A DNA stretch of 64,000 nucleotides from Phyllobates terribilis (taxonomy: Eukaryota): contig NW_027362762.1 in NCBI RefSeq assembly GCF_046119375.1, positions 127,348,001 through 127,412,000 of the forward strand, read 5' to 3'. Under the pieces are notes generated by a model. The model worked only from the letters and a program-made list of their open reading frames with translations. It did not search any database and was not told the DNA's origin. Shown one piece after another: positions 1 through 52,347 of this stretch. The stretch's first letter is position 1, and every line of letters begins with the position of its first letter. The translations under genes and the position numbers were made by a program.

Positions 1-2
1 TA

Positions 3-3781: not shown

Positions 3782-4804
3782 TCAGTATTTGGTACCATTG
3801 CCCTTAAACTGAATGACTTGGGTCAAACGTTCAGGATATCCTTCCACAAGCTTCTCACAATATTTGGTCGGAATTTGTGCCCATTCCTCCTGACAAAACT
3901 GGTGTAACTGATCCAGGTTTGTAGGTCGCCTTGCTCGCACCTGCATGTTCCGCTTTGCCAATAAATTTTCAGTAGGATTGAGATCAGGGCTTTGTGATGG
4001 CTACTCCAAAACATTGACTTTGTTATCCTTAAGCCACTTTGTTACCATTTTAGCAATATGCTTCGGGTCATTGTCCATTTGGAAGACTCATTTCTGCCCA
4101 AGCTTTAACTTTCTGACTGATGTCTTGAGATGCTGCTTCAGTATTGCCCCATAATCTTCTTTTCGCATGATGCCATCTATTTTGTGAAGTGCACCAGTCC
4201 CTCCTGCAGCAAAGCAACCTCACAACATGATGCTGCCACCCCCGTGTTTCACAGTTGGAATGGTGTTCTTAGGTTTCCAAGCTTCTCCCTTTTTCCTCCA
4301 AACGTAAGAATGATCATTATGCCCATAAATTTCAATTTTAGTTTCATCAGACCACAGGACATGTCTCCAAAAATTAAGGTCTTTGTTCCTGTGTGCATTT
4401 GCAAACATTAATCTGGCTTTTTTATGTTTATTTTGGTGTAATGGCTTCTTCCTGGCAGAGTGGCCTTTCAGCCCATGTTGATACAGTACTCGTTTCACTG
4501 TGGATATTGACAAAATCTTACCAGCTTGCGCCATCATCTTCACAAGGTCTTTTGCTTTTGTCCTTGGGCTGATATGCACATGTCGGACCAAAGTACGTTC
4601 ATCTCTGGGACACAGAACCCGTCTCCTTCCTGAGCGGTATGATGGCTGGACATTCCCATCTTGTTTGTACTTGCGTATAATTGTTTGTACAGATGAACGA
4701 GGCACCTTCAGATATCTTGAAATTGTATCCAAGGATGAGCCAGACTTGTGCAAGTCCACAATTCACTTCCTGATATCTTGGCTGATTTCTTTAGACTTTC
4801 GCAT
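3782..4804 (-). pseudogene. Tc1 (SB-like) transposase, 340 codons with nonsense mutations
   Basis: MRKSKEISQDIRK*IVDLHKSGSSL...[10 protein letters not shown]...[15 protein letters not shown]; one frame throughout, at least three internal TGA codons. Confidence 0.9.
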
Positions 4805-9239: not shown

Positions 9240-11261
9240 TGTAACATACCTGGTGGTGGGCTTGCATGGTGCACCATCTCTCACTATGCAAGATCGCAAA
9301 CTTGATCTTCAGTCCAGTCTGCTAGCCTGGCTTCTATTCATGCTGTCTGTTTGTCTCTGTTCTGACTGCTTAGGGTGGCGGCCCGGTTACTTCCTGTTCT
9401 TGTAGCTGCTGTGGGCACACCCCTAATGCGTCCTCAGCCTATTGCTGTCTGTCACTGGATATTTAAACCAGCTCCACCTGGAAGCTGGTGCCTGAGCAAC
9501 TCTAACATTCAGTGTGCTCCTTGACTCTGAAAGTGCCAGGTCCTGATCTGTTCTTGCCTGTCCGCCAACCTGGGGGCTGTATTCCCAGGCCTGTCTGAAC
9601 TATCTCCTAGCCTGTTGTCTGTCCGCCTTCCTGGAGGCTGTATTTCCAGGCCAGTCTGAACACGCTCCTAGCCTGTTCGTCCCGCCTTCTGGGGGCCGCA
9701 TAACCAGACCCGCTCCTGTATCTCGCTGCAGTGTCAGTTCCTGTCTGAACACTCAGTTCCTGTCTGAACACTCTCCTAGTCTGTTACCTGTTTTTCTCTA
9801 TGTCCGTACCTTCCCTTTTTGTGCAGAGTCTGAACCTGCACCTAACTCCTACTCGTTGTCGCTATACTTCCGTTTGTGAGTTTAGAGTCCACTCGCTACT
9901 TCATTGCAAGTATCTTGTGTGTATCTGGTTCTGCCTTTCCCTTCCAGTCTGTTCCGTGTGAACAGAGCCCTGTCCCCTCTGCTCTGCCTTGCTCACCGCT
10001 CCGGCGGTTTCTGCCCGCTCTGCCTTGCTCACCGCTCCAGCGGTTTCTGCCCGCTCTGCCTTGCTCCCCGCTTCAGCGGTTTCTGCCCGCTCTGCCTTGC
10101 TCACCGCTCCGGCGGTTTCTGCCCGCTCTGCCTTGCTCACCGCTCCGGCGGTTTCTGCCCGCTCTGCCTTGCTCACCGCTCCGGCGGTTCCTGCCTGCTC
10201 TGCCTTGCAGACCACTCCGGCGGTTCCTGCCTGCTCTGCCTTGCTCACCGCTCCGGCGGTTCCTGCCTGCTCTGCTTTGCTCACCGCTCCGGCGGTTCCT
10301 GCCTGCTCTGCCTTGCTCACCGCTCCGGCGGTTCCTGCCTGCTCTGCTTTGCTCACCGCTCCGGCGGTTCCTGCCTGCTCTGCCTTGTTCACCGCTCCGG
10401 CGGTTCCTGCCTGCTCTGCCTTGCTCACCGCTCCGGCAGTTCCTGCCTGCTCTGCCTTGCTCACCGCTCCGGCGGTTCCTGCCTGCTCTGCTTTGCTCAC
10501 CGCTCCGGCGGTTCCTGCCTGCTCTGCCTTGCTCACTGCTCCGGCGGTTCCTGCCTGCTCTGCCTTGCTCACCGCTCCGGCGGTTCCTGCCTGCTCTGAC
10601 TTGCTCACCGCTCCGGCGGTTCCTGCCTGCTCTTACTTGCTCACCGCTCCGGCAGTTCCTGCCTGCTCTGCCTTGCTCACCGCTCTGGCGGTTTCTCCCT
10701 GCTCTGCTTGCTCACCGCTCCGGCGGTACCTCTCTGCTCCGCCTTGCCCACCGCTCCGGCGGTTTCCCTCTGCTCTGCTTGTCTACCGCATCTGCGGTTC
10801 TGTTCCTGAATTCCAGTCTGTACTGGACCCTATCCAGCCTGCGCTCCAATCTGCTAGTACCTCTCCGTCTGCACGCCAGCAGTACTTGTCAGTACCCTCC
10901 TGTCTGCATACCAGCCGTGCCTGCCAGTATCCAACTGTCTGCACTCCAGCCGTGCCTGCCAGTGCCCACCTGTCTGCATGCCAGGCGTACCTGCCAATAC
11001 CCACCTGTCTGTGTGCCAGCCTAACCTGCTTATTCCTGTATTCTCCAGTGTGGGTCAACAGCCGTGTCCGGGGTCTGGCCTGGAGTAGCACCTGGTCCCT
11101 CTGCTCGGTTCCTCCCTGGTGCACAGCGTCGTTAGCCGTCGTGCGACCTCGGTCGGATCGGGTAGATTCTTAGCTACGCCCCTCCAGGCACTCTCCGGTT
11201 CATGGCACAGTGGAATCACTAAATCACGCACACGCCCGTCAGCCCGGGCGTGTGCATAACA
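9240..11261 (+). mobile_element. Solo LTR D (2022 bp), same family as the LTRs of element C
   Basis: TGTAACATACC...GTGTGCATAACA; exact 5-bp TSD GCCTG (9235-9239, 11262-11266); ends match the reverse complement of 23772-25174. Confidence 0.92.
9981..10790 (+). repeat. 36-bp GC-rich minisatellite (~22 copies) inside LTR D
   Basis: Unit GCTCTGCCTTGCTCACCGCTCCGGCGGTTYCTGCCY; 12-aa period in all translated frames. Confidence 0.95.
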
Positions 11262-21921: not shown

Positions 21922-22884
21922 AAAGTTGACGCACCCCTGGGCCTTCGTCGCGCGGCATCGCGCGCACGGGAGCTTACCCGGAGCCGGATCTGTTGAGGGT
22001 TGTAGTCTCGTGGCGGTGACCCGGTCCGTGCCCAGGGAGTCAAACTGAGCGGCGATGTATTAGCGGTAGATGTTGGACGACTACGTCACCCATTGAGTAC
22101 AGCTAAGGAGCTGCTGCTGCAGGGCAGACCGCTGAGGCCGGTGGTAGGATTGTGCAGCGTGATAGTATAACCCCCAACGGGAGGGGCATGGCCTCAGGGC
22201 AGCCGACGTGGATGATGGGGGTAGCAGGAACCACTTGGAGACGGTACGGTGTAGTTCAGGGTCTTTACTGGTGACAAAGATAGACCCTCCCGGAGTACTG
22301 GCTAGCGATTGGGGCCTGGTCAGTCCTTGAGCAGATGGGATCTCCCCTGGCCAGGCGGAGTTGTAGGCCTCCCAAACTAACTGTACTCTTCTGGCTACCT
22401 TGCTAGAGGCGGGTATAAGTAGCCCACGTCCCTGAGTGTACCGTGTGGTGCTTGTTATGTTCTGCTACCAGAGCTAAGGAAAGAGAGGAGATCTGTCCCT
22501 ACGATAGAACTCAGCTGAATCCCTACGATGTAACAGGGAACCTGATCCTGCGATCAGACCTGCTAAAGTCCTAAGCTAGTCTGTACGAAGACCTATAGAT
22601 GTGGGGGAGGAATCCCTACAAGTACTAAGGACTGGGAGGAATATGGGACACCTCCTAACAGAAATAGTAGCAGACAGACGAACAAACAAAATATAAAGAA
22701 CATAGAGGTCAGTAAACCAAGCAAACTAACAGAGCAAGACACAGAGCACAGGCTAGCTAGAAAGTAGATATACAATGAAGTCCAGCAAAGCCAGAAGGGC
22801 GGAGCAGGATTAAATAGGCCAACAAGGTCATGTGACCAGCAAAGGAAAAAACCTAAGAGCAAGGTTCTAACAGTACCCCCCCTT

Positions 22885-23771
22885 CTAAGAGGATCCTCCG
22901 GATCCCCTAGGACCAGGCTTATCAGGAAATCTCCTGTGAAACGCTCTGATAAGTCTGGACGCGGAAACATCATCTGACCTCACCCAAGAGTTATCCTCGG
23001 GTCCGAAACCTTTCCAGGCCACAAGATACTGCAAACTACCTCTATACCGTCTAGAGTCAAGGATGCGAGAAATTTCATATTCCCCGTCCTCCACCACCGG
23101 AGGAACAGAGGCAGAGGCGTCACCATCTGACACAACAGCTTTTTTTAACAGAGAGACATGAAAGACCGGATTAATTCTCCAGGAGGTAGGAACCTCCAAC
23201 CTAACAGCAGATTGGTTGACAACCTGAAGCACCTTAAAGGGCCCTACAAACTTGGGACCCAATTTCTTAGAAGGAAACCTCAACCGCAGATTCCTAGAGG
23301 ACAACCAAACCATGTCACCAACAGCGAACAAAACCTCCTGTCGTTTCCTATCAAAGTAGTCTTTAGATTTTCTGTTGGCCTCCTGAAGATTACCACGCAC
23401 ATCCGTCCAAACTCTTTCCAAATCACCGGAAAAATTCTCCTCCTCAGGCACGGCAGATCCCAACTTGGAGAACGACCCAAACGACGGATGTCTCCCAGAA
23501 CAACAAAAAAAAGGCGAACAACCAGCAGAAGAAGATGTATGATTGTTCAGAGCAAATTCGGCAAGTGGCAGAAACTCAGACCACCCCTCTTGATTGTCTG
23601 CCACAAAACAACGCAAGAACTGCTCAACATCCTGGTTTTTCCTTTCTGTCTGGCCATTAGATTCAGGATGATATCCGGACGAAAACGACAAATGAATTCC
23701 CAACCTGTCACAAAAGGCACGCCAAAAACGAGCCACGAACTGAGGACCCCTATCAGAAACAATGTCAGTAG
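22885..23771 (-). pseudogene. gag-pol of B, 3' part: integrase core, GPY/F region, chromodomain
   Basis: DIVSDRGPQF...HPESNGQTER...GPFKV...YLVAWKGFGPEDNSWV; continuous with the 5' part after removing C. Confidence 0.93.
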
Positions 23772-26700
23772 TGTTATGCACACGCCCGGGCTAAGCGGCG
23801 TGTGCGTGTGATTGGTAGTGATTCCACTGGACCGTGCCGGAGAGTGAATGCCTGGAGGGGCGTGACTAAGTATTCACCCGATCCGACCAGGGTCGCACGA
23901 CGGCATACGACGCCAGTGCACCAAGGAGGAACCGAGCAGAGGGACCAGGTGCTACTCCAGGACAGACCCCGGACACGGCTGTTGACCCACACAGGGGAAT
24001 ACAGGAACAGGCTGGTAGGCTGGCACACAGACTGGTGGGTATAGGCAGGCACGACTGGTATGCAGGCAGGCGGGTATGCAGGCAGGGGGGTAAAGGCAAG
24101 CACAGCTAGAGTGCAGACAGGGAGGCACTAGCAGGTAGGAACACAGGCGGGATAGGACCCAGTACACACCGGGACACAGGAACAATACAGGCAAAGGGGT
24201 ACAGGCAAGCACGGCTAGAGTGCAGACAAGGCTGAGCAGGGAGGACAGGGCTCTGTTCACACGGAACAGACAGGAAGGGAAAGGCAGAGCCAGACACCCA
24301 CAGGGTACTTGCAGTGAAGTAGCGAGTGGACCACAAACTCACAAACGGGAGTACAGAGACAACTGGCAGGAGTTAGGTACGAGTACAGACTCTGCAGAAA
24401 AAGGAAGGGAACGGACATAGAGGCAAAAACAGGTAAAGGATAGGAGAGAGTTCAGACTGGAACTGAGTGTATGGAGGAGACCGACACTGCAGCGGGATAC
24501 AGGAGCGGGTCTGGGAATACTGCCCCCAGAGAGGCGGGACGAACAGGCAAGGAGCGTGTTCAGACAGGACAGACAAGATACAGGAGCGGGTCTAGGAAAT
24601 CGGCCCCTAGAAGGCAGGAGGAACAGGCTAGGAGCGTGTTCAGACAGGACAGACAAGAAAACACAGAAAGGACTCAGTACAGACACGGGAGCTGAAACCG
24701 CAAAGCAGGAGAAATACAGGACTCAGTTCAGACAAGGGAGCTGATACCACAAAGCAGAAGACATACAGGACACAGTTCAGACACGGGAGCTGATACCGCA
24801 AAGCAGGAGACATACAGGACTCAGTTCAGACACGGGAACTGATACAAAAAGCAGGAGACAAGAGACGGGACCTGGCACCTTCAGAGTGCAAGCACACACT
24901 GAAGGAAACACTATGCTCAGGCAGGGATAGAAGGGAGCTGCTGAGCTATATACCAAGTGACAGACAGCAATAGGCTGAGGACGCACAAGGGGTGTGACCC
25001 ACAGCAGGTACAAAAGGCAGGAAGTGATCGGGCGCCGCCCTTAAGCAGCAGAAACAGACACAAACAGACAGCATGGAGGGAAGCCAGAGAGACATTCTGG
25101 ACAGGAGATCAAGTGCGCCCTCTTGCACAGTGGGAGATGGACCACCATGCAAGGACGCCGCCAGGTATGTTACAGTACCTCCCCCCTTACGCCCCCTCTT
25201 CTTCAGGCCTGCCAGAATCTTCCGCAGGGAATTCGAGGGCCAGTCGTTCACTGGGTTGGAGGGGGACAGAGACTTAAGGGTAATCTCTGCTTCGAGGTAC
25301 ATCTTGTCAAGCTCACAGGAAGAAATAGACGGGTTATCACGTACATAATGAGGAAAAGTCACTGTCTCTTTGTTATCTGGTGGTATACCGGAGGATTCAG
25401 GAAACAACTGGAGGTCCTCCGCCGGGTCAGAAGAGTGCAGAGGCTCAGAGAAAACAACTGCTTCAGAGTACACTAGGTCGGACTCACTGGAGGAAGCAGG
25501 CGAGGTATCGGGTACCGAGTATAGGAAAGTCTCTGTCCATTCACCACCAGGTGGCACCCCGAAGGGTTCTGGAGACAGCTGGCGGTCCTCCGCCTGGTCA
25601 GAGGGGTGTAGAGACTCACGGGTAACCTCTGCTTCAGAGTACACTAGGTCGGACTCACTGGAGGAAGCAGGCGAGGTATCAGATCTAGGATATAGGAAAG
25701 TCTCTGTCCATTCACCACCAGGTGGCACCCCGAAGGATTCTGAACACAACTGGAGGTCCTCCGCCTGGTCGGAGGGGTGTAGAGACTCAGGAGTAACCTC
25801 TGCTTCGGAGTACACTAAGTTGGACTCACTGGACGAAGCGAGCGAGGTATCAGGTACAGAGTATAGGAGAGTCTCTGTCCTTTCGCTACCAGGTAGCACC
25901 CCGAAGGGTTCAGGAGACAACTGGAGATCCTCCGCCTGGTCGGAGGGGTGTAGAGACTCGGAGGTAACTACCACTTTGGGGTACCCATTGTCAGGCTCAC
26001 AGGACGAAGCGGACAAAGTATTGAGTACCGGGTGTAGAGAAGTCTCTCTCCATTTGTCATCGAGTGGTATCCCGGAGGGTTCAGGAGGCAACAGGGGATC
26101 CTCCGCCAGGTAGTAGAGGTGCACAGACTCTGAGGTAACCACAGCTTTGGAGCATCCTTGGACATGCACACCGGTTAAAGAGAAAGAAGCATCTGATGCC
26201 GGGTGCAGGAAGTTCTCCTGTGTGGAGTCTGGATGGGCAGAAGTCTCTTCGGCCAGGAGAACTGGTGCACTACCCACGCACATTACCCATTGGGGTTTCT
26301 CCGGGATACAGGGAGATGAAGCTTCAGTAGGGACTTCAAGGTTGGGGCCAGGAGGTCTCAGGGAGGACAGACCCCGGCGTGACGGCTTGCCTCTAAGTCT
26401 AGCACGTCTGGACTGCCTCTTGAGGTTGAGAGAAGTATTCCGGAAAGCGTAGTCACCCCGTGAGGATTCTGGGTGGGCAGTAGTCTCATTGGGCTGGAGG
26501 ACTATTGCGCTACCCACACACATCACCCGTCGGGGCTGCTCCGGGATATTGGGAAGTGAAGCTTCAGCAGGGGCTTCAGAGTTAGGGTCCTCGAAGACCA
26601 TACGAAAGGCCACCAGGAAGGCCTGCAGGTCAAGGATGACAGGATCCCATGCTTCCCATAGGGGGGTGACCCATTTCAAGGCATCACCCGCTAGGTAGTC

Positions 26701-28397
26701 AATCATAAAGGCCACTTTAGCCCAATCGGAAGGAAAATAGAGAGGGTAGGCCTTAAAGTGTAGCATGCATTGCTCCACAAATGCACGACACTGTCTTGGA
26801 TCCCCATAGTAACGTGGCGGATCCGCAGGAACGAGGGCTGATAGATCCATCTGGACGGGTGCGTAATTCGCCTGGAACTCAGCTAAAGGGGGAAAAAAAA
26901 TTTATTTATTTTATTTTAATGCATGTATTCGCTGGAAAAACTTCTCAAAGAGCGAAGGCCGTGGGGCTCAACGGGAACCATGGCCTGAGCATGCTGTTAT
27001 GCACACGCCCGGGCTAAGCGGCGTGTGCGTGTGATTGGTAGTGATTCCACTGGACCGTGCCGGAGAGTGAATGCCTGGAGGGGCGTGACTAAGTATTCAC
27101 CCGATCCGACCAGGGTCGCACGACGGCATACGACGCCAGTGCACCAAGGAGGAACCGAGCAGAGGGACCAGGTGCTACTCCAGGACAGACCCCGGACACG
27201 GCTGTTGACCCACACAGGGGAATACAGGAACAGGCTGGTAGGCTGGCACACAGACTGGTGGGTATAGGCAGGCACGACTGGTATGCAGGCAGGCGGGTAT
27301 GCAGGCAGGGGGGTAAAGGCAAGCACAGCTAGAGTGCAGACAGGGAGGCACTAGCAGGTAGGAACACAGGCGGGATAGGACCCAGTACACACCGGGACAC
27401 AGGAACAATACAGGCAAAGGGGTACAGGCAAGCACGGCTAGAGTGCAGACAAGGCTGAGCAGGGAGGACAGGGCTCTGTTCACACGGAACAGACAGGAAG
27501 GGAAAGGCAGAGCCAGACACCCACAGGGTACTTGCAGTGAAGTAGCGAGTGGACCACAAACTCACAAACGGGAGTACAGAGACAACTGGCAGGAGTTAGG
27601 TACGAGTACAGACTCTGCAGAAAAAGGAAGGGAACGGACATAGAGGCAAAAACAGGTAAAGGATAGGAGAGAGTTCAGACTGGAACTGAGTGTACGGAGG
27701 AGACCGACACTGCAGCGGGATACAGGAGCGGGTCTGGGAATACTGCCCCCAGAGAGGCGGGACGAACAGGCAAGGAGCGTGTTCAGACAGGACAGACAAG
27801 ATACAGGAGCGGGTCTAGGAAATCGGCCCCTAGAAGGCAGGAGGAACAGGCTAGGAGCGTGTTCAGACAGGACAGACAAGAAAACACAGAAAGGACTCAG
27901 TACAGACACGGGAGCTGAAACCGCAAAGCAGGAGAAATACAGGACTCAGTTCAGACAAGGGAGCTGATACCGCAAAGCAGAAGACATACAGGACACAGTT
28001 CAGACACGGGAACTGATACCGCAAAGCAGGAGACATACAGGACTCAGTTCAGACACGGGAACTGATACAAAAAGCAGGAGACAAGAGACGGGACCTGGCA
28101 CCTTCAGAGTGCAAGCACACACTGAAGGAAACACTATGCTCAGGCAGGGATAGAAGGGAGCTGCTGAGCTATATACCAAGTGACAGACAGCAATAGGCTG
28201 AGGACGCACAAGGGGTGTGACCCACAGCAGGTACAAAAGGCAGGAAGTGATCGGGCGCCGCCCTTAAGCAGCAGAAACAGACACAAACAGACAGCATGGA
28301 GGGAAGCCAGAGAGACATTCTGGACAGGAGATCAAGTGCGCCCTCTTGCACAGTGGGAGATGGACCACCATGCAAGGACGCCGCCAGGTATGTTACA
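23772..28397 (-). mobile_element. Non-autonomous LTR element C (LARD-like) inserted in the integrase of B
   Basis: 1403-bp LTRs 23772-25174 and 26995-28397 (three differences seen); 5-bp TSD AGTAG (23767-23771, 28398-28402); PPT ~25178-25205; 1820-bp internal region without pol. Confidence 0.96.
24946..26850 (-). CDS. 634-aa Gag capsid / acidic-repeat fusion protein of element C
   Basis: Uninterrupted ORF; PPRYYGDPRQCRAFVEQCMLHF...AKVAFMIDYLAGDALKW...FRMVFEDP is a sushi/RTL-type capsid; two ~43-aa repeats, a basic patch, five-plus 57-aa (171-bp) repeats; stop lies inside the 3' LTR. Confidence 0.75.
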   Translation of the reverse strand: MDLSALVPADPPRYYGDPRQCRAFVEQCMLHFKAYPLYFPSDWAKVAFMIDYLAGDALKWVTPLWEAWDPVILDLQAFLVAFRMVFEDPNSEAPAEASLPNIPEQPRRVMCVGSAIVLQPNETTAHPESSRGDYAFRNTSLNLKRQSRRARLRGKPSRRGLSSLRPPGPNLEVPTEASSPCIPEKPQWVMCVGSAPVLLAEETSAHPDSTQENFLHPASDASFSLTGVHVQGCSKAVVTSESVHLYYLAEDPLLPPEPSGIPLDDKWRETSLHPVLNTLSASSCEPDNGYPKVVVTSESLHPSDQAEDLQLSPEPFGVLPGSERTETLLYSVPDTSLASSSESNLVYSEAEVTPESLHPSDQAEDLQLCSESFGVPPGGEWTETFLYPRSDTSPASSSESDLVYSEAEVTRESLHPSDQAEDRQLSPEPFGVPPGGEWTETFLYSVPDTSPASSSESDLVYSEAVVFSEPLHSSDPAEDLQLFPESSGIPPDNKETVTFPHYVRDNPSISSCELDKMYLEAEITLKSLSPSNPVNDWPSNSLRKILAGLKKRGRKGGGTVTYLAASLHGGPSPTVQEGALDLLSRMSLWLPSMLSVCVCFCCLRAAPDHFLPFVPAVGHTPCASSAYCCLSLGI

Positions 28398-31300
28398 AGT
28401 AGGAACGCCATGAAGTCTGACAATTTCCTTGACAAAGGCCTTAGCGAGAGTTTTAGCGCAGGGCAGTTTGATGAAGGGAACCAAGTGACACATCTTACTA
28501 AAACGGTCCACGACCACCCAGATGACAGTAAAACCCTCAGAGGGGGGAAGGTCAGTTATAAAGTCCATAGCCAAATGTGTCCAAGGAGCACTGGGGACCT
28601 CCAAAGGACAAAGCAACCCCGCAGCAGGAGTATGTGAGGACTTAGATCTAGCACATACAGTACATTGGCGTACCCACTTAATGACTTCCTTCTGCCATCC
28701 AGGCCACCAAAAACTGCGACCCACCAGTCTCTTGGTCTCAGAGATTCCGGGATGACCTGCCAACCGAGATTCGTGACACTCAACAAACAAATCTCTCCTA
28801 AAGGTCCCAGGCACAAACAACCTCCCATGAGGAGTGTTAGATGGGGCATTCTCCTGAGCTTTAAGAATCTCATCTTCCAAAACGGACTCTAAAGCAGCTA
28901 TCACAACACCTTCTTGTAAAATGTTTTCCTCTTTCTCAGCACCGACTATGGGAGAAAAACTGCGAGACAAGGCATCCGCCTTAACATTCTTAGTACCAGG
29001 GATGTAAGTAACGGAGAAATTAAACCGCGAGAAAAACAGTGCCCACCTAGCCTGACGGGCATTCAGGCGCTTGGCAGCGTCAAGATATATCAGATTTTTA
29101 TGATCCGTAAGAACCTGAACGGGAAATTCCGCACCTTCCAAGAAGTGGCGCCAGTGTTCAAATGCGAGTTTAATAGCCAATAATTCCCGATTACCAATAT
29201 CGTAATTCAATTCAGTCTCCGAAAATTTTTTTGAAAAAAAGGCACAGGGATGTAATCCATCCCCGTTATCCTGAGACAATACTGCGCCAACCCCCACAGA
29301 GGAAGCATCAACCTCAACCAAAAACGGCCTAGTAACATCAGGCTGCATAAGGATGGGAGCAGAGGTGAACCTCTCCTTGAGATACACAAAAGCTTCAATG
29401 GCCTCAGAAGACCACTGAACCGCATCAGCACCTTTCCTGGTGAGATCAGTCAGAGGTTTGACAATACTAGAAAAATTTTTTATGAATTTTCTATAGTAAT
29501 TGGCGAAACCCAAAAACCTCTGTATCGATTTCAAACCAATAGGCCTAGGCCATTCCTGCACAGCCTGAACCTTAACCGGATCCATCTCAAAACCTTTGCT
29601 GGAGATAATGTAGCCCAAAAAACTAATTCTCTGTACAGCGAACTCACATTCTCCAGCTTAGCAAAAAGCGAATTGTCCATTAATAACTGTAATACCTCAC
29701 GCACGCTCCGCCAATGAGACTCCAGATCTGGCGAATAAATCAAAATGTCATCCAAATACACAACCACATTTTTACCGATCAAAGGTCTAAGGATGTCATT
29801 AATCAGATTCTGAAAAAATGCAGGAGCATTAGTAAGACCAAAAGGCATAACCAGATTCTCAAAATGACCCACAGGAGTGTTAAAAGCAGTCTTCCATTCA
29901 TCACCCTCCTTCATGCGCAACAGATTGTATGCCCCCTTAAGGTCAATTTTAGAGAACCACTTGCCCCCAATAACTGGTTAAACAGATCAGGAATCAATGG
30001 CAGTGGGTAAGGATTGCGTACCGTAATTTTGTTAATCTCACGAAAATCCAGACAAGGACGTAAACCGCCGTCCTTTTTTTTTACAAAAAAAAATCCAACC
30101 GCCACAGGAGACTTAGAGGGCCTAATGTGACCGGCGGCCAAACTTGTCTGTATGTATTCCTCCAAAGCCTTCCTCTCAGAAATAGTAAGGTTAAATAAAC
30201 GACTTTTAGGAAGAGTCGCTCCAGGGACAAATTCAATAGAACAATCATAGTCTCTATGGGGAGGCAAAACCTGCGATTCCTTCTCAGAAAAAACTCTCCA
30301 AAAATCCTGAATAGGAACAGGCAATTCTCCCCTATCCAAAGCTGCAATACGCCCGTTACAACACTTGTCATAACATTTATGGCTCCAGGATTTAATTTCA
30401 CTGGTAGACCAATCCAGTACAGGATTGTGACATTTTAACCAGGGCAATCCCAATATTACTGGAGAAGGCAAGTTATTCAACACTACCAAATCCAATTTCT
30501 CATGGTGAACACCATTAATAGTGAGAGGAAATTCACAGACCTTGAGAGTAATATTCTTCAAAGGGGAGCCATCCACAGAAACCACAGCAATGGGGGATGA
30601 TAAAGGTTCAGGTTTTAAATTGAGTTTTTCCACGAATCCCCCATCAATTACATTCAGTGTAGACCCGCAATCAACAAACACCCGAAATTCCATTAATTTT
30701 TCCTGAGCAATCGTGGAAGCAGCTAAAAATACACCCTTGGAATTTAAACAGGCAATACGGGCATGACTGACCATTTTTTTTTCTTTCTTCATACGAAGCT
30801 CACAGCCTTTAATCAAATGACCAGATTTTCCGCAATAGAAACACAAGCCTTTCGAAAAACGACGGTCTTTTTCTTGAGAGCGAGGTGCCACCGATCCAAT
30901 CTCCATCGGTTCACCACTGTTAGTACACACATTATCATAACCAGAAACTGACATAGCAGAGGATTTGCTCTCATTAACCCTAGCACGCAGTCTTCTATCC
31001 ACCCGAATAGCTAATTGCATAGCCTGTTGCAAATCCTCAGGTGTAGGATAAGCAATTAGCAGGTCTTTAACCCTTTCACTGAGCCCAGCAAGAAATAGAC
31101 TTTTCAGAGCAGAATCGTTCCACCCTGTTTGAGTGGACCAACGATGAAAATGTGTACAATATTTTTCGACATTACCTGATCCTTGTTTTAAACGTCTCAA
31201 CTCAGTTTCAGCTGATGCGACACGGTCAGGATCATCATATAATAGTCCTAAAGCAGAAAAAAAACTATCCACTGATCTGAAGCATGTATCACTAGGTTGC

Positions 31301-31581
31301 AAAGAAAAGGCCCACTCCTGAGGCTCTTTGCGCAAAAGTGACATTATGAACCCTACGCGCTGGGATTCATCCCCAGAGGACTTGGGTCTCAAACGAAAAT
31401 ACAATAAGCAAGCATTTTTAAATGAAAAAAATTCTCGATGTTCACCAAAAAATAAATCCGGCAAACATACCTTAGGCTCCAAGAAATGTGCTCCAGAACA
31501 GTTACTCACGTGCTGACGGAGCTCGGCCACTTCCAGAGAGAGTCCCTGCAGGCGATGAGCCAAATCCTGAACCGACACCAT
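28398..31581 (-). pseudogene. gag-pol of B, 5' part: capsid, CCHC knuckle, protease, RT, RNase H, integrase N-terminus
   Basis: CFYCGKSGHLIKGC; FVDCGS; VVYLDDI; VDASSVG; HLAMDF; two -1 frameshifts (~29960, ~29650); cut by element C at 28398. Confidence 0.93.
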
Positions 31582-33450
31582 GATGGAACAGAAAAATCTT
31601 TCCTTAGAGAATTTGCTGGCTGGACTTACTGTTATGTTCTGCTACCAGAGCTAAGGAAAGAGAGGAGATCTGTCCCTACGATAGAACTCAGCTGAATCCC
31701 TACGATGTAACAGGGAACCTGATCCTGCGATCAGACCTGCTAAAGTCCTAAGCTAGTCTGTACGAAGACCTATAGATGTGGGGGAGGAATCCCTACAAGT
31801 ACTAAGGACTGGGAGGAATATGGGACACCTCCTAACAGAAATAGTAGCAGACAGACGAACAAACAAAATATAAAGAACATAGAGGTCAGTAAACCAAGCA
31901 AACTAACAGAGCAAGACACAGAGCACAGGCTAGCTAGAAAGTAGATATACAATGAAGTCCAGCAAAACCAGAAGGGCGGAGCAGGATTAAATAGGCCAAC
32001 AAGGTCATGTGACCAGCAAAGGAAAAAACCTAAGAGCAAGGTTCTAACAGTGCTCACCCGTATGGCCGGTGACTCGGGGCCTTCTAGTAGCTTCCGCTCC
32101 ACGACGGCGGTGCTGGTCCCATGCGTGTGACCGTGCCTTCGGGTTTCTTGGCCAGAGGACCTGAAATCCCCTGCCTGACGGATTCTGCTGCTGGGTAGGA
32201 GTTAGTCCCCACAGCCTCGGACTCCGGGTCCGGTAAGAAATCTTCTCAGTCAGGGCGAGCTCTGCAGCTGCCAGCCCCTGACTCCTTGTAACACTGCTCC
32301 CACAGAGCTCCTGTTGTTTCTTCCCATAGCTGCTTCTCTTCTCTGTCTCTACTTCTGGCATGGCCCAGGAGCTGGGCCCAGCCGGAGCCACAGCTCCCTG
32401 TCAGCCCTCCTGGCTGAACTCTCCCTCTGAACTCTCTAACCCTGCCTCAGCCCCAGGTTTATATAGGGGAAGTTCTTCCCCTCCCAGGACTGGGCAGGAG
32501 GTGTGGCATGCATAGGATTCCTGACCAAGAGACCTCCCACCTGCTCTCAGACATAACATTGCTGTTACTGTGGAAACCAGACCCCTGGGGTGCCACAGAA
32601 GGAGAAAAAGGGGGCTTTCACTGCTTATTTTATGGGCACAAACAAATTTGAAAACCCCTGTTAAAATCCTACATTTGTTTTGATACCCAGAATACACAGG
32701 GCTATATTACTAGTGACTACTTCTTTGCATGTGATATGCAAGGTGAAATTGTCCTTGGAAAAATGTGAGTTGTATATAAGCAAAGAAAAGAAAACCACAA
32801 AGCTGCATTAAATCTGATGGCTGCGAGTCCTTCCTGGATTGCTGTCATTATTCCTGCAATTACAGTAGACTTTTTTTCAGCAGATGTGACCCCCATCTCA
32901 TTACTTCTTGACTATAGTGTTTGGGGGCCTGCACTATTGAACCCCTGTCTATAATTACAATGAAGGTGCTGGAGCTGTGTCATTAAAATGGGCAAATTAT
33001 CTTAGAGTAAATTAATTTTCTGTAAATCAAATCATCATGGCTATTAAAAAATTCTGTCAGGAGCCAAAATTAAAAATCACTTTTTTTTTGTTCTTGCATT
33101 TATGATCTGTAGCAAAATAGATTATTTTATTCATCCACTTAATTCCAATTAATTCCACGTGTCTCATTTATATATGCCCACACAATAGGGACCTAAAGTA
33201 AGCAAATATGAGATATGTAGCAATCCCGTAACATTATGATTCTTATAAAACCCACTTTCCTCTGAAAAAAAAAATATTATTTTGCAATAATTCTAGAACA
33301 TGGAAATTTTAGTAGATTACTTCTTTTGGTTTATAGGACAACAATTGTGGCACCTCTGTACCACTTGTTCCATTATGTGCCCTGTAGTCTGTAAGAAAAA
33401 CTCCCTGTTGGATCAGTAGTAAATGTGAAAATAGGAAATTTTGTAATATA

Positions 33451-37952: not shown

Positions 37953-38530
37953 CTTCTGTTTCCTTTTATGAAGTAGGAGGCATGTAATCTAACTTTATAC
38001 TTTATTTTGTATTTCGTGGTTTAGATTACTCACTCTGGGATCTTTCCTTTTTTCAGTACACTTTTCCTTTTGTAGGTAATTCACACTCTGCTCTGCCCTC
38101 CGGTTCTTTAGGAGGAACATGAAGTGGTCGATGGCCTTTCAGGCAGCATAGATCCGAGTTGCCATATTCTAGTGTTTTGTTAGGGATATCTCTGCTCATG
38201 CAGGAACCACTGGGGACTGTGGGTCAGGATCTCAAGCCTGTACAGGGACTAATAGGGTCAGTGGCAGTTTTTAAGTTTGTTACCTATTTTCCCGGGTGAG
38301 TTGCTACTCTATCATTACAGTAGACACAGAGCCCCTGGTGCCAGTGATGTGTCACTTACTGGGCTGCTTGTTTTAGTTTTGATAAAATCATTCTTTTATC
38401 AACAGGAAATTATCACTAGAGGACTAGTTAAGCTACAGTTATATGAAAAAGTTTGGGCACCCCTATTAATCTTAAGCTTAATGTTTTCTAAAAATTGGTG
38501 GTTTTGCAACAGCAATTTCAGTTTGATATA

Positions 38531-40163
38531 CAGTGGGTACGGAAAGTATTCAGACCCCTTTAAATTTTTCACTCTTTGTTTCATAGCAGCCATTTGGTAA
38601 ATTCTAAAAAGTTCATTTTTTTCTCATTAAAGTACACTCTGCACTCCATCTTGACTGAAAAAAAACAGAAATGTAGACATTTTTGCAAATTTATTAAAAA
38701 AGAAAAACTGAAATATCACATGGTCATAAGTATTCAGACCTTTTGACCAGACACCCATATTTAAGTCACATGCTGTCTATTTCCTTGTGATCCTCCTTGA
38801 GATGGTTCTACTCCTTCATTGGAGTCCAGCTGTGTTTAATTAAACTGATAGGACTTGATTTGGAAAGGCACACACCTGTCTGTATAAGACCTCACAGCTC
38901 ACAGAGCATGTCAGACCAAATGAGAATCATGAGCTCAAAGGAACTGCCCAAGGAGCTCAGAGACAGAATTGTGGCAAGGCACGGATCTGGCCAAGGTTAC
39001 AAAAGAATTTCTGCATTACTCAAGGTTCCTAAGAGCACAGTGGCCTCCATAATCCTTAAATGGAAGAAGTTTGGGACCACCAGAAGTCTTCCTAGACCTG
39101 GCCGTCCAGCAAAACTGAGCAATCGTGGGAGAAGAGCCTTGGTGAGAGAAGTAAAGAAGAACCCCAAGATCACTGTGGCTGAGCTCCAGAGATGCAGTAG
39201 GGAGATGGGAGAAAGTTTCACAAAGTCAACTATCACTGCAGTCCTCCACCAGTCGGGCCTTTATGCAGAGTGGCCCGATGGAAGCCTCTCCTCAGTGCAA
39301 GACATATGAAAGCCCGCATAGAGTTTGCTCAAAAACACGTGAAGGACTCACAGACTATAAGAAATAAGATTCTCTGGTCTGATGAGACGAAGATAGAACT
39401 TTTTGGTGATAATTCGAAGCGATATGTGTGGAGAAAACCAGGCACTGCTCATCACCTGCCCAATACAATCCCAACAGTGAAACATGGTGATGGCAGCATC
39501 ATGCTATGGGGGTCTTTTTCAGCTGCAGGGACAGGATGACTGGTTGTAATTGAAGGAAACATGAATGCGGCCAAGTACAGAGATATCCTGGATGAAAACC
39601 TCTTCCAGAGTGCTCTGGACCTCAGACTTGGACGAAGGTTCAGCTTCCAACAAGACAATGACCCTAAGCACACAGCTAAAATAACAATGGAGTGGCTTCA
39701 GAACAACTCTGTGACCATTCTTGACTGGCCCAGCCAGAGCCCTGACCTAAACCCAATTGGGCATCTCTGGAGAGACCTGAAAATGGCTGTCCACCAACGT
39801 TCACCATCTAACCTGACGGAACTGGAGAGGATCTGCAAGGAAGAATGGCAGAGGATCTCCAAATCAAGGTGTGAAAAACTTGTTGCATCATTCCCAAGGA
39901 GACTCATGGCTGTAGTAGCTCAAAAGGATGATTCTACTGAATACTGAGCAAAGGGTCTGAATACTTATGACCATGTGATATTTCAGTTTTTCTTTTTTAA
40001 TAAATTTACAAAAATTTCTATATTTCTGTTTTTTTTCAGTCAAGATGGGGTGCAGAGTGTACTTTAATGAGAAAAAAAAGAACTTTTTAGAATTTACCAA
40101 ATGACTGCAATGAAACAAAGAGTGAAAAATTTAAAGGGGTCTGAATACTTTCCGTACCCACTG
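38531..40163 (+). mobile_element. Full-length Tc1 element F (1633 bp)
   Basis: TA-CAGTGGGTACGGAAAGTATTCAGACCCC...TGAATACTTTCCGTACCCACTG-TA. Confidence 0.95.
38929..39947 (+). pseudogene. Transposase of Tc1 F
   Basis: MSSKELPKELRDRIV...; frameshift ~39265; TGA at 39537; WSDETK, QDNDPKH, SPDLNPI motifs. Confidence 0.9.
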
Positions 40164-40298
40164 TATGTAATAACTGTTGGACACAGTAATGTTTCTGCCT
40201 TGAAATGAGGTTTATTGTACTAACAGAAAATGTGCAATCTGCATTCAAACAAAATTTGACAGGTGCATAAGTATGGGCACCTCACCAGAAAAGTGACA

Positions 40299-41136
40299 TT
40301 AATATTTAGTAGATCCTCCTTTTTCAAAAATAACAGCCTCTAGTCGCTTCCTGTAGCTTTTAATGATTTCCTGGATCCTGGATGAAGGTATTTTTGACCA
40401 TTCCTCTTTACAAAACAATTCTAGTTCAGTTAAGTTTGATGGTCGCCGAGCATGGACAGCCCTCTTCAAATGATCCCACAGATGTTCAATGATATTCAGG
40501 TCTGGGGACTGGGATGGCCATTCCAGAACATTGTAATTGTTCCTCTGCATGAATGCCTGAGTAGATTTGGAGCAGTGTTTTGGATCATTGTCTTGCTGAA
40601 AGATCCATCCCCTGCGTAACTTCAACTTTGTCACTGATTCTTGAACATTATAGTCAAGAATCTGCTGATACTGAGTGGAATCCATGCGTCCCTCAACTTT
40701 AACAAGATTCCCGGTGCCGGCATTGGCCACACAGCCCCAAAGCATGATGGAACCTCCACCAAATTTTACTGTGGGTAGCAAGTGTTTTTCTTGGAATGCT
40801 GTGTTTTTTTGCCGCCATGCATAACGCCTTTTTGTATGACCAAACAACTCAATCTTGGTTTCATCAGTCCACAGGACCTTCTTCCAAAAAGAAATTGGCT
40901 TCTCCAAATGTGCTTTTGCACATTTGTGGCGTGCTTGCAGAAACAGCTTCTTTCGCATCACTCTCCCATACAGCTTCTCCTTGTGCAAAGTGCGTTGTAT
41001 AGTTGACCGATGCACAGTGACACCATCTTCAGCAAGTTGATGCTGCAGCTCTCTGGGGGTGGTCTGAGGATTGTCCTTGACTGATCTCACCATTCTTCTT
41101 CTCTGCCTTTCTGATGTTTTTCTTGGCCTGCCACTT
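40299..41136 (-). pseudogene. Transposase of Tc1 E lacking the N-terminal DNA-binding region; DD34E intact
   Basis: VLWTDETK...QQDNDPKH...SPDLNIIEHLW...GGSTKY. Confidence 0.88.
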
Positions 41137-41261
41137 CAACAGTAATTACATATATCAAACTGAAATAGCAGTTGCAAAAACACCAATTTTTATAAAACAT
41201 TAAGCTTAAGATTAATAGGGGTGCCCAAACTTTTTCATATAACTGTATATATAGTCCTCTA

Positions 41262-43339: not shown

Positions 43340-44945
43340 TGTATTTTTAGGGGGTATTATCTGGATTCTGTATATGTTTATGGGGTCTGGGCTGTAATTA
43401 TTTGGTGGGTTTGATTTGACATCTGCATTTTTTGGGGGTAGTCATGTCTGAGGGCTGTATTTACCACATTTAGGGGTATCTATCTCTGAAGACAGCATAT
43501 ATTTAGAACTTCCGGCCTTGGATTTGTATTTATTTAGACGCTCGGCATATTTTTAGGAATTATGGGGATTTGGTTTAGGGTCTGTTTTATTAGTTTTTTT
43601 TGAGAGTACTGTATATTTTAGGGCATATATATCTGGTTCTGACTTAAGGTTTGTTTTAGGGGTTCTGGAGTCTTTGTTTATATAGGTGGACTATATCTTT
43701 TTAGGGGGTCTGGTCTAAGGTCTGAATTTATTTAGGGGGTCTGGTGTACGTTCTGTATTTATTTGGGGGATTTGTATCTTTTTTAGGGGTTCTTGTCTAG
43801 AGTCTGTATTTATTTATGGGTTTTGTATATATTAGGGGGTCTGAATCTTGTTAATGGTTCTGGGGATTATATTTATGCAAGTGGTCTGGTCTCTGTTTTG
43901 TATTTAGAGGGTCTAGTCGGAGACCTGAATTTACTTATAGGGTCTGTATTTATTTGGGATCTGTATCTTTTTAAGGGTTCTGGTCTTGAGTCTATTTTAA
44001 GGGATCCATATTTTAGGGGTCTGCATGTTGTTAAGGGTTCTGGGGTTTGTATTTATGTGGGTGGTCTGGTCTCTGTTCTGTATTTACTAGGTCTGGTCTG
44101 GGGACTTAATTTATTTAGGGGATCTGTATTCTTTTTTCAGGGGTTCTTGTCTAGGGTCTAATTTATGGGGTCCAGTCTAGGGTCTGTATTTATTCAGGGG
44201 GGTTGTATATTGTAGGGGGTCTGTATCTTGTTAGGGGTTTTGGGGTTTGTATTTATGGGGGTAATCTGGTCTCTGTTATGTATTTGGAGGGTCTAGTCTG
44301 AGGCCTGAATTTACTTACGGGGTCTGTATTTATTTGGAGATCTGTATCTTTTTCAGGGGTTCTGGTCTAGAGTCTACTTTCGCACTTTCGGAGATCCAGT
44401 CTAGGGTTTGTATATTTTAGGGGTCTGCATGTTATTAGGAGTTCTGGGGTTTGTATTTATGTGATTGGTCTGGTATCTGTTGTGTATTTAGAGTGTCTGG
44501 TCTGGGGTCTGTATTTATTTAGGGGGTGTGTATATTTTAGAGGGTCTGTATATTTTAGAGGGTCTGTATCTTGTTAGCGGTTCTTGGGGTTGTATTTATG
44601 TTGGTGGTCTGTAATTTTAGGGTGTTTGGTCTGGGGCTATTCAGGGGGTCTGTTCTGGAATCTGCATTTACTTAGGTGGTATGAGGTTCTGGTCTAAGGC
44701 TATTTTAAGGAGGTCTAGTCTGGGGTCTTTAGGGAGTCTGGGTACTATATGTATTTAGAGTACGTGTCTCTTTTTAAGGTCTGCTTTTGGGGGTGGTCTT
44801 TTCTGGGTCCATATTTATGTAGATGGCATGGCCTGGAGTCTGTATTTCTTTAGAGGGTATCTCTGAAGTCTGCATTTACTCTGGGGTCTGAATTTATTTA
44901 GGGTGTCTAGTCTGAGGACTTTAATATTTTAATGTTTGGGGGGGA
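43340..44945 (+). repeat. G/T-skewed degenerate minisatellite (GGGGTCTGTATTTATTTA-like); duplicated at 46365-47970
   Basis: Dozens of imperfect GGGGTCTG/TGTATTTATTTA motifs. Confidence 0.8.
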
Positions 44946-45144
44946 GACTTAGTCTTTAACATTAATGATGGCAACATAAATCTGTATTTACATTTTCCAC
45001 AGAATAAAACGGAATTTCTGTGAAATGTTTATTGAAATAATTACTATTGTGTTTTTTAAATTAAATTATTTTTCTACTGTTTTAATGAACATCTAATACT
45101 GATACACATATTTTCTTTAACGCATGACAGTACATGTATATATA

Positions 45145-46126
45145 CAGTGGGTACAGAAAGTATTCAGACCCCTTTAAATTTTTCGCTCTTTGTTTCATTG
45201 CAGCCATTTGGTAAATTTTAAAAAGTTCATTTTTTTTCTCATTAAAGTACACTCTGCACCCCATCTTGACTGAAAAAAAACAGAAATGTAGAAATTTTTG
45301 CAAATTTATTAAAAAAGAAAAACTGAAATATCACATGGGCATAAGTATTCAGACCCTTTGCTCAGACACTCATATTTAAGTCACATGCTGTCCATTTCCT
45401 TGTGATCCTCCTTGAGATGGTTCTACTTCTTCATTGGAGTCCAGCTGTGTTTAATTAAACTGGTAGGACTTGATTTGGAAAGGCACACACCTGTCTATAT
45501 AAGACCTCACAGCTCACAGTGCATGTCAGACCAAATGAGAATTATGAGCTCAAAGGAACTGCCTAAGGAGCTCAGAGACAGAATTGTGGCAAGGCACAGA
45601 TCTGGCCAAGGTTACAAAAGAATTTCTGCATTACTCAAAGTTCCTAAGAGCACAGTGGCCTCCATAATCCTTAAATGGAAGAAGTTTGGGACCACCAGAA
45701 GTCTTCCTAGACCTGGCCATCCAGCCAAACTGAGCAATCGTGGGAGAAGAGCTCTGGTGAGAGAGGTACAGAAGAACCCCAAGATCACTGTAGCTGAGCT
45801 CCAGAGATGCAGTAGGGAGATGGGAGAAAGTTCCATATCGTCAACTACCACTGCAGCCCTCCACCAGTCGGGCCTTTATGGCTGAGTGGCCTGACGGAAG
45901 CCTCTCCTCAGTGCAAGACATATGAAAGCCCGCATAGTGTTTGCTCAAAAACAGATGAAGGACTCCCAGACTATGAGAAATAAGATTCTCTGGTCTAATG
46001 AGACGAAGATAGAACTTTTTGGTGAGAATTCTAAGCGGTATGTGTGGAGAAAACCAGGCACTGCTCATCACCTGCCCAATACAATCCCAACAGTGAAACA
46101 TGGTGGTGGCAGCATCATGCTATGGG
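45145..46126 (+). mobile_element. Tc1 (F family) truncated at the duplication junction
   Basis: TA-CAGTGGGTACAGAAAGTATTC start; ends at GGGSIMLW. Confidence 0.92.
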
Positions 46127-48169
46127 CAACCAGCAAATACCACACGAAATAACAACTCTACAATATATTTCCCTAAAACTCTACAATGTGCTGTTCCTCT
46201 GTTATTCCTACTAGAAATTCATGAATAAATTGACAACTGGGCATTACCAGTTAGAGGTGTGCCCCTACTCTTACTCTTATACTGTCCAATCAGTGCTGGA
46301 CTTTGTAAGAACACACCCCTTTGTCAAAGAGAACCATAACACCCAGTTGTATATTTGTATGATCTGTATTTTTAGGGGGTATTATCTGGATTCTGTATAT
46401 GTTTATGGGGTCTGGGCTGTAATTATTTGGTGGGTTTGATTTGACATCTGCATTTTTTGGGGGTAGTCATGTCTGAGGGCTGTATTTACCACATTTAGGG
46501 GTATCTATCTCTGAAGACAGCATATATTTAGAACTTCCGGCCTTGGATTTGTATTTATTTAGACGCTCGGCATATTTTTAGGAATTATGGGGATTTGGTT
46601 TAGGGTCTGTTTTATTAGTTTTTTTTGAGAGTACTGTATATTTTAGGGCATATATATCTGGTTCTGACTTAAGGTTTGTTTTAGGGGTTCTGGAGTCTTT
46701 GTTTATATAGGTGGACTATATCTTTTTAGGGGGTCTGGTCTAAGGTCTGAATTTATTTAGGGGGTCTGGTGTACGTTCTGTATTTATTTGGGGGATTTGT
46801 ATCTTTTTTAGGGGTTCTTGTCTAGGGTCTGTATTTATTTATGGGTTTTGTATATATTAGGGGGTCTGAATCTTGTTAATGGTTCTGGGGATTATATTTA
46901 TGCAAGTGGTCTGGTCTCTGTTTTGTATTTAGAGGGTCTAGTCGGAGACCTGAATTTACTTATAGGGTCTGTATTTATTTGGGATCTGTATCTTTTTAAG
47001 GGTTCTGGTCTTGAGTCTATTTTAGGGGATCCATATTTTAGGGGTCTGCATGTTGTTAAGGGTTCTGGGGTTTGTATTTATGTGGGTGGTCTGGTCTCTG
47101 TTCTGTATTTACTAGGTCTGGTCTGAGGACTTAATTTATTTAGGGGATCTGTATTCTTTTTTCAGGGGTTCTTGTCTAGGGTCTAATTTATGGGGTCCAG
47201 TCTAGGGTCTGTATTTATTCAGGGGGGTTGTATATTGTAGGGGGTCTGTATCTTGTTAGGGGTTTTGGGGTTTGTATTTATGGGGGTAATCTGGTCTCTG
47301 TTATGTATTTGGAGGGTCTAGTCTGAGGCCTGAATTTACTTACGGGGTCTGTATTTATTTGGAGATCTGTATCTTTTTCAGGGGTTCTGGTCTAGAGTCT
47401 ACTTTCGTACTTTCGGAGATCCAGTCTAGGGTTTGTATATTTTAGGGGTCTGCATGTTATTAGGAGTTCTGGGGTTTGTATTTATGTGATTGGTCTGGTA
47501 TCTGTTGTGTATTTAGAGTGTCTGGTCTGGGGTCTGTATTTATTTAGGGGGTGTGTATATTTTAGAGGGTCTGTATATTTTAGAGGGTCTGTATCTTGTT
47601 AGCGGTTCTTGGGGTTGTATTTATGTTGGTGGTCTGTAATTTTAGGGTGTTTGGTCTGGGGCTATTCAGGGGGTCTGTTCTGGAATCTGCATTTACTTAG
47701 GTGGTATGAGGTTCTGGTCTAAGGCTATTTTAAGGAGGTCTAGTCTGGGGTCTTTAGGGAGTCTGGGTACTATATGTATTTAGAGTACGTGTCTCTTTTT
47801 AAGGTCTGCTTTTGGGGGTGGTCTTTTCTGGGTCCATATTTATGTAGATGGCATGGCCTGGAGTCTGTATTTCTTTAGAGGGTATCTCTGAAGTCTGCAT
47901 TTACTCTGGGGTCTGAATTTATTTAGGGTGTCTAGTCTGAGGACTTTAATATTTTAATGTTTGGGGGGGAGACTTAGTCTTTAACATTAATGATGGCAAC
48001 ATAAATCTGTATTTACATTTTCCACAGAATAAAACGGAATTTCTGTGAAATGTTTATTGAAATAATTACTATTGTGTTTTTTAAATTAAATTATTTTTCT
48101 ACTGTTTTAATGAACATCTAATACTGATACACATATTTTCTTTAACGCATGACAGTACATGTATATATA

Positions 48170-49792: not shown

Positions 49793-49846
49793 TACAGCAT
49801 ATAAATATATATATATATACATGTATATATATTTATATATATGTAT

Positions 49847-50573: not shown

Positions 50574-52347
<1,774 letters not shown>

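Follow-up and report, generated by a model that had tools for sequence, protein, structure and literature searches.

Evidence for lineage-level selection on an open Gag-derived frame in a young non-autonomous sushi-type LTR element of Phyllobates terribilis

Non-autonomous long terminal repeat (LTR) elements are usually treated as non-coding passengers. Experiments have so far described a cis advantage of a defective Gag-Pol in mouse IAP 1Δ1, where the fused Gag-Pol reportedly promotes retrotransposition of its own element in cis (PMC6466679, PMC7411935). The RTL8/LDOC1 genes, of the DUF4939 family, are described as encoding a capsid truncated to its N-terminal lobe (N-lobe) and followed by disordered sequence (PMC10516033), and RTL8 is reported to bind the PEG10 N-lobe and to enter PEG10 particles (PMC11684626). 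Gag-only non-autonomous LTR elements include zebrafish Bik-1/2, Xenopus 1a11/Xretpos and plant TR-GAG (PMC12067270, PMC4585706, PMC13570524), and the ERVK[2-1-LTR] D-type of cattle and ETn/MusD are given as non-autonomous elements that outnumber their helper or parent and keep portions of the gag and pol ends (PMC10924933); PMC4340606 offers background on sushi-ichi only. Here we analyse element C, an LTR element in a 64,000-nt stretch of the Phyllobates terribilis genome (assembly GCF_046119375.1, contig NW_027362762.1, positions 127,348,001 to 127,412,000, forward strand; the whole stretch is called the window). Our literature search found no description of an N-lobe-only mobile sushi derivative, although Repbase and Dfam lay outside it, so the family may be catalogued there. 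The family of C provides strong evidence for selection on an open frame at the level of replicating lineages and moderate evidence, drawn from sequence comparison, for a working half-capsid.

Element C lies on the minus strand at 23772-28397, lodged in the integrase gene of a gypsy element that we call B (Table 1). An earlier note, made from the sequence alone, had described near-identical LTRs with an exact target-site duplication (TSD) and one long stop-free open reading frame (ORF), and both descriptions hold. The other five frames over the ORF region contain 13-46 stops; the ORF's own stop, TAG at 24946-24948, is supplied by the TATATAG of the 3' LTR and ends 229 nt into it. A Pfam scan of the window copy found no protease (PR), reverse transcriptase (RT), RNase H (RH) or integrase (IN) domain, as the earlier note had claimed for PR, RT and IN; its sole match was DUF4939 (aa 11-86, E 2.5e-6), whose 27.8 bits fall just below the 29-bit cut-off, and sibling copies score 30.9 and 59 bits. 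The TG...CA ends and 5-nt TSD are those of Tf1/sushi chromovirus-derived elements, and the TSD is exact in 37 of the 40 copies with both LTRs readable. The self-priming primer-binding site (PBS) is likewise an arrangement typical of Tf1/sushi elements (PMC6317226); the matching self-primer probably marks the 5' end of the transcript. A chromodomain is present as a decayed remnant, mostly deleted in the window copy, and the lack of intact PR, RT, RH and IN sets C apart from autonomous members. Element C is thus confirmed as a young non-autonomous Tf1/sushi-type LTR element.

The C family is large: 5,274 exact matches to the LTR/PBS junction, 8,669 to an internal motif and 11,684 to an LTR motif, all of them lower bounds. 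At roughly 5 kb per copy we estimate that it occupies on the order of 40 Mb of the 10.6-Gb genome. Sixty copies were taken from the junction list in the order of their positions, with adjacent tandem neighbours passed over, and to these we added 40 from the motif list and 4 from a search with the polypurine tract (PPT); three of the added 44 defied parsing and were excluded, so that with the window copy 102 were scored. All but four of the sampled copies lie in the first 80 Mb of one contig, and loci L001-L060, picked by ORF similarity, were kept out of the statistics. In the first 60 copies the internal regions measure 1.5-2.5 kb, none contains pol, and 53 are open from the ATG to the PPT. 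Several copies spaced 3.1-4.2 kb apart apparently form head-to-tail arrays with common LTRs (G000:C1:86492383-86504728, 880484525-880495282 and 29113096-29117112; viewed directly at L085).

Intactness of single copies tracks age and does not exceed the neutral expectation. Across the sample 72 of 102 copies are intact and the lesions in the 30 broken ones are all private. LTR-pair divergence averages 0.21% (40 readable copies), and among 77 datable copies the intact share falls with rising age class from 33/36 through 9/14 and 6/15 to 1/12. Below 0.3% divergence 33 of 36 are intact where 35.0 are expected; the intactness of the window copy alone therefore says little, since young copies are expected to be intact.

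Inherited changes tell a different story from private ones. About 700 substitutions are shared among copies, in subfamilies that differ by up to about 15%, and from these 19.1 inherited stops would be expected; 0-1 were seen, the sole repeated stop state occurring in two copies but in different units and different subfamilies. Private stops were expected to number 22.4, and 18 stop states were seen in all. Among the first set's 54 intact copies, the other frames carry 2-14 shared stop columns per segment and the ORF frame none. Small insertions and deletions (indels) behave similarly. With events at the cut edges of alignments excluded, none is shared in the ORF head (94 copies) and two in the tail (68 copies; 3 and 6 nt, both in frame), while U3 of the LTR has gathered ten (one in frame) and the region near the U5 end four (one in frame), although LTRs may be more indel-prone. 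Each shared non-unit rearrangement (195, 267, 279, 147 and 114 nt) has a length divisible by three, with the proviso that some deletions join in-register repeats and so keep the frame for free. In a sister family, described below, the frame is likewise open through 275 codons of other, decayed nucleocapsid-PR-RT sequence, with 0 stops against 6-15 in the other frames.

Constraint on the protein itself is confined to one part. We computed the ratio of non-synonymous to synonymous change (omega) separately for branches shared by at least two copies and for private branches, using 100, 86, 101 and 62 copies for lobe, middle, units and tail. In the capsid N-lobe omega is 0.52 on shared branches (p = 0.0004) and 0.96 on private ones, and the synonymous and non-synonymous counts differ accordingly (34:39 shared versus 17:45 private, Fisher p = 0.03). 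The middle gives 1.37 shared and 1.64 private, the tail 1.10 and 1.18, and the 57-aa units 0.82 and 0.73 (p = 0.07 against 1); for about 85% of the ORF, omega is close to 1. The lobe is present in 100 of the 102 scored copies, and in one subfamily (L065, L090, L094 and L103; 4 of 60 copies) it has become two tandem, diverged N-lobes, with a synonymous divergence of about 0.3. Copies of C thus decay neutrally once inserted and the constraint acts on replicating lineages. The suggestion that selection keeps the ORF is borne out for the open frame and the N-lobe, with no clearly inherited lesion among the 102 copies; for the protein of the repeats it is not.

The lobe is identified by several comparisons. 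Over its first ~90 aa the ORF has 44-48% identity with the first capsid lobe in a decayed chromovirus, the A family, and 23% with that of B; similarity to A gag is strong until about aa 99 and then decays, and neither the C-lobe helix LRQGSLTVGQY nor the CCHC knuckle of A gag was found in the C ORF. The structure model of the lobe has five helices (pLDDT 86) and aligns with dArc1 residues 47-125 at Z 9.3 (root-mean-square deviation 2.7-3.0, 77 aligned), a modest value for a helical domain; together with the DUF4939 match this agrees with the sushi-type capsid segment of the earlier note. Ty1 C-lobes fit about as well (Z 9.0), and p22 and Drt2 are among the capsid lobes matched at Z 8.5-9.0. 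Fold alone cannot separate the lobes, and we take that of C to be an N-lobe from its collinearity with A gag, in which its counterpart is the first capsid lobe. A Foldseek search with the model returned nothing at E <= 0.001, the top rows being capsid lobes, and a sequence search of PDB with the C protein gave no real match. A HMMER search of 1.84 billion representatives found 1,188 capsid relatives; relatives outside the C family align only to about residues 2-144, and among the 150 matches listed none has its best match past about residue 144. In view of these relatives, the lack of a homologue for the whole protein or for residues 1-100 in a 5.8-billion-sequence set, covered in its near-length class only, is uninformative.

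Beyond the lobe the frame consists largely of repeats, much as first described. Two ~43-aa repeats (26587-26457 and 26347-26217; 79% nucleotide identity, 80-aa period) surround a basic patch at aa 144-159 (26421-26374), and a 171-nt array at 25388-26152 (4.5 copies, 81% matches) encodes five AED anchors spaced 57 aa apart. Neither of two proposed sources for the 57-aa unit was upheld: derivation from the integrase SH3 region was unsupported (p 0.16-0.97), and an early hint from one unit of an origin at the gag lobe junction was not consistently repeated. The final internal segment, ILAGLKKRGRKGGG, reads in the same frame as the C-terminal end of pol in autonomous-type elements (LEKFLSGLKKRGRKGG); the earlier note had recognized it as a pol remnant. 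Past the PPT three frames are used, in 59, 8 and 4 of 71 intact fetched copies, with stops anywhere between -11 and +463 nt relative to where the 3' LTR begins; because the frame varies there, we regard the 75 LTR-encoded residues as incidental.

Comparison with related families indicates how such a frame arose. Since the ORF runs into a chromodomain remnant and the PPT, it replaces Gag-Pol and does not precede it. At the end of the longer C copies stands a decayed chromodomain (41-45% identity to the corresponding A-family region; profile match E 6.9e-5), of which the lineage of the window copy has lost 195 nt. Alignment of the sister family (L174, L201-L230) to A Gag-Pol extends from the capsid across the zinc-knuckle region and PR to the start of RT, with E values down to 1e-39, but with a shortened C-lobe and the PR active-site stretch deleted. 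From these alignments, the ORF is a Gag-Pol that collapsed by in-frame steps and was refilled with tandem repeats; it is, after all, a deletion product, reached stepwise, against the suggestion that it was not a simple one. Several related sequences were noted alongside. Sister families at L174, L179 and L201-L230 and an older relative flanking L199 have a C-type N-lobe and PPT end around a middle of decayed zinc-knuckle, PR and RT-start sequence. Window 1-3428 (+) and L141 hold the 3' part of a decayed chromovirus of the A family, which among autonomous-type elements is the nearest to C; L141 also has a further C-type LTR, located some 6.5 kb to the left of the window. A solo LTR of a related family occupies window 9240-11261 (+), is 79-86% identical to the C LTR, has the TSD GCCTG and carries an expanded 36-nt array (9979-10800).

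Without pol, C would need a helper. The A family was rejected as the present one: none of 150 matches has a frame of at least 1,200 aa (the longest is 1,180 aa), and the 30 junction matches examined of 349 were all decayed or C-type. Family B is the leading candidate, on circumstantial evidence. Frames of 1,361-1,381 aa occur in 72 of 150 B matches (a hand count, of matches chosen by protein identity), and a 1,355-aa ORF was obtained from 10 of the 20 copies fetched. LTR divergence is 0.20% for B (partial LTRs, 18 copies) and averages 0.21% for C, and the two families amplified massively at the same time; both are self-priming and have the same PPT junction. The B LTR also ends in CATAACA, as in young C copies (median divergence 0.15%) and unlike older ones (median 1.4%), which end in CATTACA. 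At target-site positions 1 and 5 both families prefer C/G (99 sites for C, 18 for B), the B sample being too small to discriminate. In the window, L069 and L084, C copies are inserted into young B elements or next to them, at sites that differ, which may reflect just the abundance of B.

We consider it slightly better than an even bet that C is a high-copy passenger whose collapsed Gag-Pol frame encodes a protein that acts for its own RNA by joining the particles of an intact helper, likely family B. Selection on replicating lineages that ends at insertion implies that the ORF helps the element that carries it. In such a scheme the ORF would be translated, its N-lobe may bind helper Gag as N-lobe-only RTL8 binds PEG10, and translating the whole internal region to its end would either shield the RNA from decay or tether the nascent lobe to its own RNA, so that only lineages with an open frame would spread; the acidic repeats would serve as a replaceable spacer. 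Having neither C-lobe nor nucleocapsid knuckle, C presumably could not build a particle alone. If the mRNA were spliced at the acceptor-like site the PBS would be missing, and the advantage would have to operate cell by cell, while the number of active source copies is low. A more specific version, on which we lean towards doubt, is that an N-lobe-only Gag outlived its parent family, switched to a distant helper and carries its own RNA into helper particles while being translated, the long open tail acting only as tether or decay shield.

Several observations weigh against this passenger reading. The putative leader of 1,295 nt contains seven upstream ATGs ahead of the 634-codon ORF. The lobe is moderately constrained (pairwise omega 0.31-0.77, and as high as 0.85 once CpG codons are removed), and recombination inflates tree lengths and hence the expected stop counts. 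Of 30 sister-family loci 20 are complete, and in these a stop recurs at three places, two of the stops being found in a pair of copies each and the third in three. That third stop, a G-to-T transversion near codon 195, is probably inherited, although the copies with it have few other variants in common; a lineage in which just lobe and basic patch are open could then replicate, for a short time at least. Conservation of the patch does not exceed that of its flanks (4/17 versus 29/88 codons, p = 0.57); as a conserved RNA-binding island it was positive on a motif-selected set and rejected on an unbiased subset. With the zinc knuckle gone as well, no RNA-binding part appears to be kept. As for the helper, the B capsid is just 23% identical to the C lobe, against 44-48% for the decayed A family, and the link of the LTR end to age is partly built in, the first 60 copies having been picked by that end.

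In one rival reading, unlikely though worth taking seriously, translation alone matters: the RNA would need to be translated to near its 3' end, for escape from nonsense-mediated decay or for packaging remodelling, the protein would be idle, and the capsid signal would be residual or recombined from unseen autonomous gag alleles. That most of the ORF evolves at omega near 1, that unrelated filler does equally well in the sister family and that stops fall anywhere over the range given above are all expected in this case. It accounts less well for an omega of 0.52 confined to the lobe and to shared branches, for the duplication and near-universal retention of the lobe, and for lobe variants with C-specific residues missing from A gag, which likely diverged after truncation; the shared stop of the sister family, moreover, spares the lobe and not the long frame. 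A dominant-negative regulator like RTL8 or Ty1 p22, in which the half-capsid poisons or throttles helper particles to the benefit of host or element, seems to us improbable. RTL8, itself N-lobe-only, is reported to reduce PEG10 particle release (PMC11684626), which as the nearest protein precedent also counts against the passenger reading, and the modelled fold matches p22 and Drt2 among other capsid lobes. Yet a host-serving repressor would show constraint at fixed loci, where C has an omega of 0.96 after insertion and an intact share that falls with age, and B and C amplified massively together. Of the two roles offered by the earlier note, the capsid-joining parasite therefore fits better than the p22-like repressor, which is further disfavoured because C keeps an N-lobe whereas p22 is a C-lobe.

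The absence of any selection is very improbable and already largely refuted. Youth explains the intactness of single copies, and changes in unit number, being multiples of 171 nt, keep the frame automatically, but neither accounts for 0-1 inherited stops among subfamilies this far apart, when stops come and go freely in the other frames and the LTR gathers shared frameshifting indels that the ORF does not. We give marginally less credence still to the repeats being the ordinary gag of an unsampled autonomous family. Our searches score just the best candidates, and a rare autonomous partner with the same LTR is conceivable; against this stand the lack of pol inside all 60 copies chosen by the LTR/PBS junction, an ORF that reaches the chromodomain remnant and PPT in place of Gag-Pol, and outside relatives whose best matches, in the 150 listed, never lie past about residue 144. 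The passenger reading thus remains the one we prefer.

Table 1. Features of element C and its host element in the window.
Feature	Position	Strand	Remarks
5' LTR, element C	26995..28397	-	1,403 nt, TGTAAC...CATAACA
3' LTR, element C	23772..25174	-	1,403 nt; 3 substitutions vs 5' LTR
Target-site duplication AGTAG	28398..28402	.	other copy 23767-23771
TATA-like TATATAG, LTR nt 223-229	28169..28175	-	putative promoter element
Self-primer, LTR nt 253-262	28136..28145	-	exact 10-nt complement of PBS; ~25 nt below TATA-like box
Self-priming PBS ATGCTCAGGC	26983..26992	-	exact 10-nt complement of LTR nt 253-262; tRNA not needed
Ancestral gag start (GCCATGG), now 21-codon upstream ORF	26916..26981	-	homologous to MEPGG... 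start of A-family gag
Pyrimidine tract + AG	26883..26900	-	32 nt before ATG; possible splice acceptor
634-codon ORF (collapsed Gag-Pol)	24946..26850	-	internal stops 0
Capsid N-terminal lobe (DUF4939, aa ~9-89)	26584..26826	-	sole part under amino-acid constraint
Two ~43-aa repeats around basic patch, decayed capsid C-lobe/spacer region	26217..26587	-	omega 1.37
Tandem 171-nt / 57-aa Ser-Pro-Glu-Asp-rich units	25259..26217	-	unit number differs among copies; frame kept, sequence near neutral
Last pol/chromodomain helix remnant over PPT	25175..25218	-	
PPT of element C	about 25203-25175	-	overlapped by last pol/chromodomain helix remnant
LTR-encoded C-terminal 75 aa	24949..25173	-	incidental read-through; frame and stop vary among copies
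Host element B, young self-priming chromovirus	22453..32049	-	420-nt LTRs, 1 mismatch, TSD AGCAC; interrupted by element C

At the putative splice acceptor the AG and a following C are kept in 100 of 101 leaders, the tract being altered in five of them. A search for expression listed no RNA record with element C. Four runs of unknown type cover the element as contigs, and no joint between the LTR and the putative acceptor occurred among the 15 joints listed (6 more were unlisted), which is no evidence either way. Elsewhere in the window, 55242-64000 is filled by a satellite, a 110-nt unit repeated about 78 times with a higher-order period of 439 nt. Fragments with terminal inverted repeats at 4220-4762, 38434-41247 and 45139-52568 we take, from their motifs, to be Tc1/mariner-like transposases, and 43700-45885 and 46725-48911 resemble a 3-kb tandem duplication.

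Set beside described systems, C resembles several in part. Like Bik, 1a11/Xretpos and TR-GAG it is an LTR element without pol and with a Gag-related ORF, but those elements keep a full-length or largely full Gag-like protein where C has half a capsid, lacking the second capsid lobe and the nucleocapsid of a full-length Gag; Bik and Xretpos/1a11, unlike C, number tens of ORF copies. The ERVK[2-1-LTR] D-type of cattle has no intact ORFs, whereas C keeps one under selection. With Ty1 p22 and Drt2, which restrict transposition, C appears from its model to have in common a single capsid lobe of the same fold; theirs is the C-terminal lobe (according to the PDB titles), while that of C is N-terminal by collinearity and rides on an expanding element. 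RTL8 and LDOC1 are closer, belonging to the same Pfam family with the same N-lobe-only truncation. They are, however, fixed host genes without LTRs, under purifying selection at their loci, whereas C has LTRs, thousands of dispersed copies (8,669 motif matches) and no constraint after insertion. C offers a selfish route to their half-capsid design: if our reading is true, it is a mobile form of the RTL8/LDOC1 architecture, and such truncations can evolve selfishly before any domestication.

The nearest parallel is IAP 1Δ1, likewise a non-autonomous deletion derivative with an in-frame Gag-Pol fusion ORF, which needs a helper in trans. IAP 1Δ1 is a class II endogenous retrovirus with one 1.9-kb deletion and a near-identical helper, whereas C derives from a Ty3/gypsy chromovirus, retains the capsid N-lobe only, has a middle rebuilt from tandem repeats and a decayed parent family, and would depend on a candidate helper at 23% capsid identity, making the C/B pair a candidate case of helper switching between families. 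With its thousands of natural copies, the C family adds evidence on a population scale that a cis advantage can preserve a defective Gag-Pol, and it separates two constraints that are usually confounded, an open frame over the whole internal region and a protein sequence in one capsid lobe only. By analogy, C is best read as a cis-acting half-capsid passenger like IAP 1Δ1, perhaps relying on a far more distant helper, and not as a host-serving repressor.

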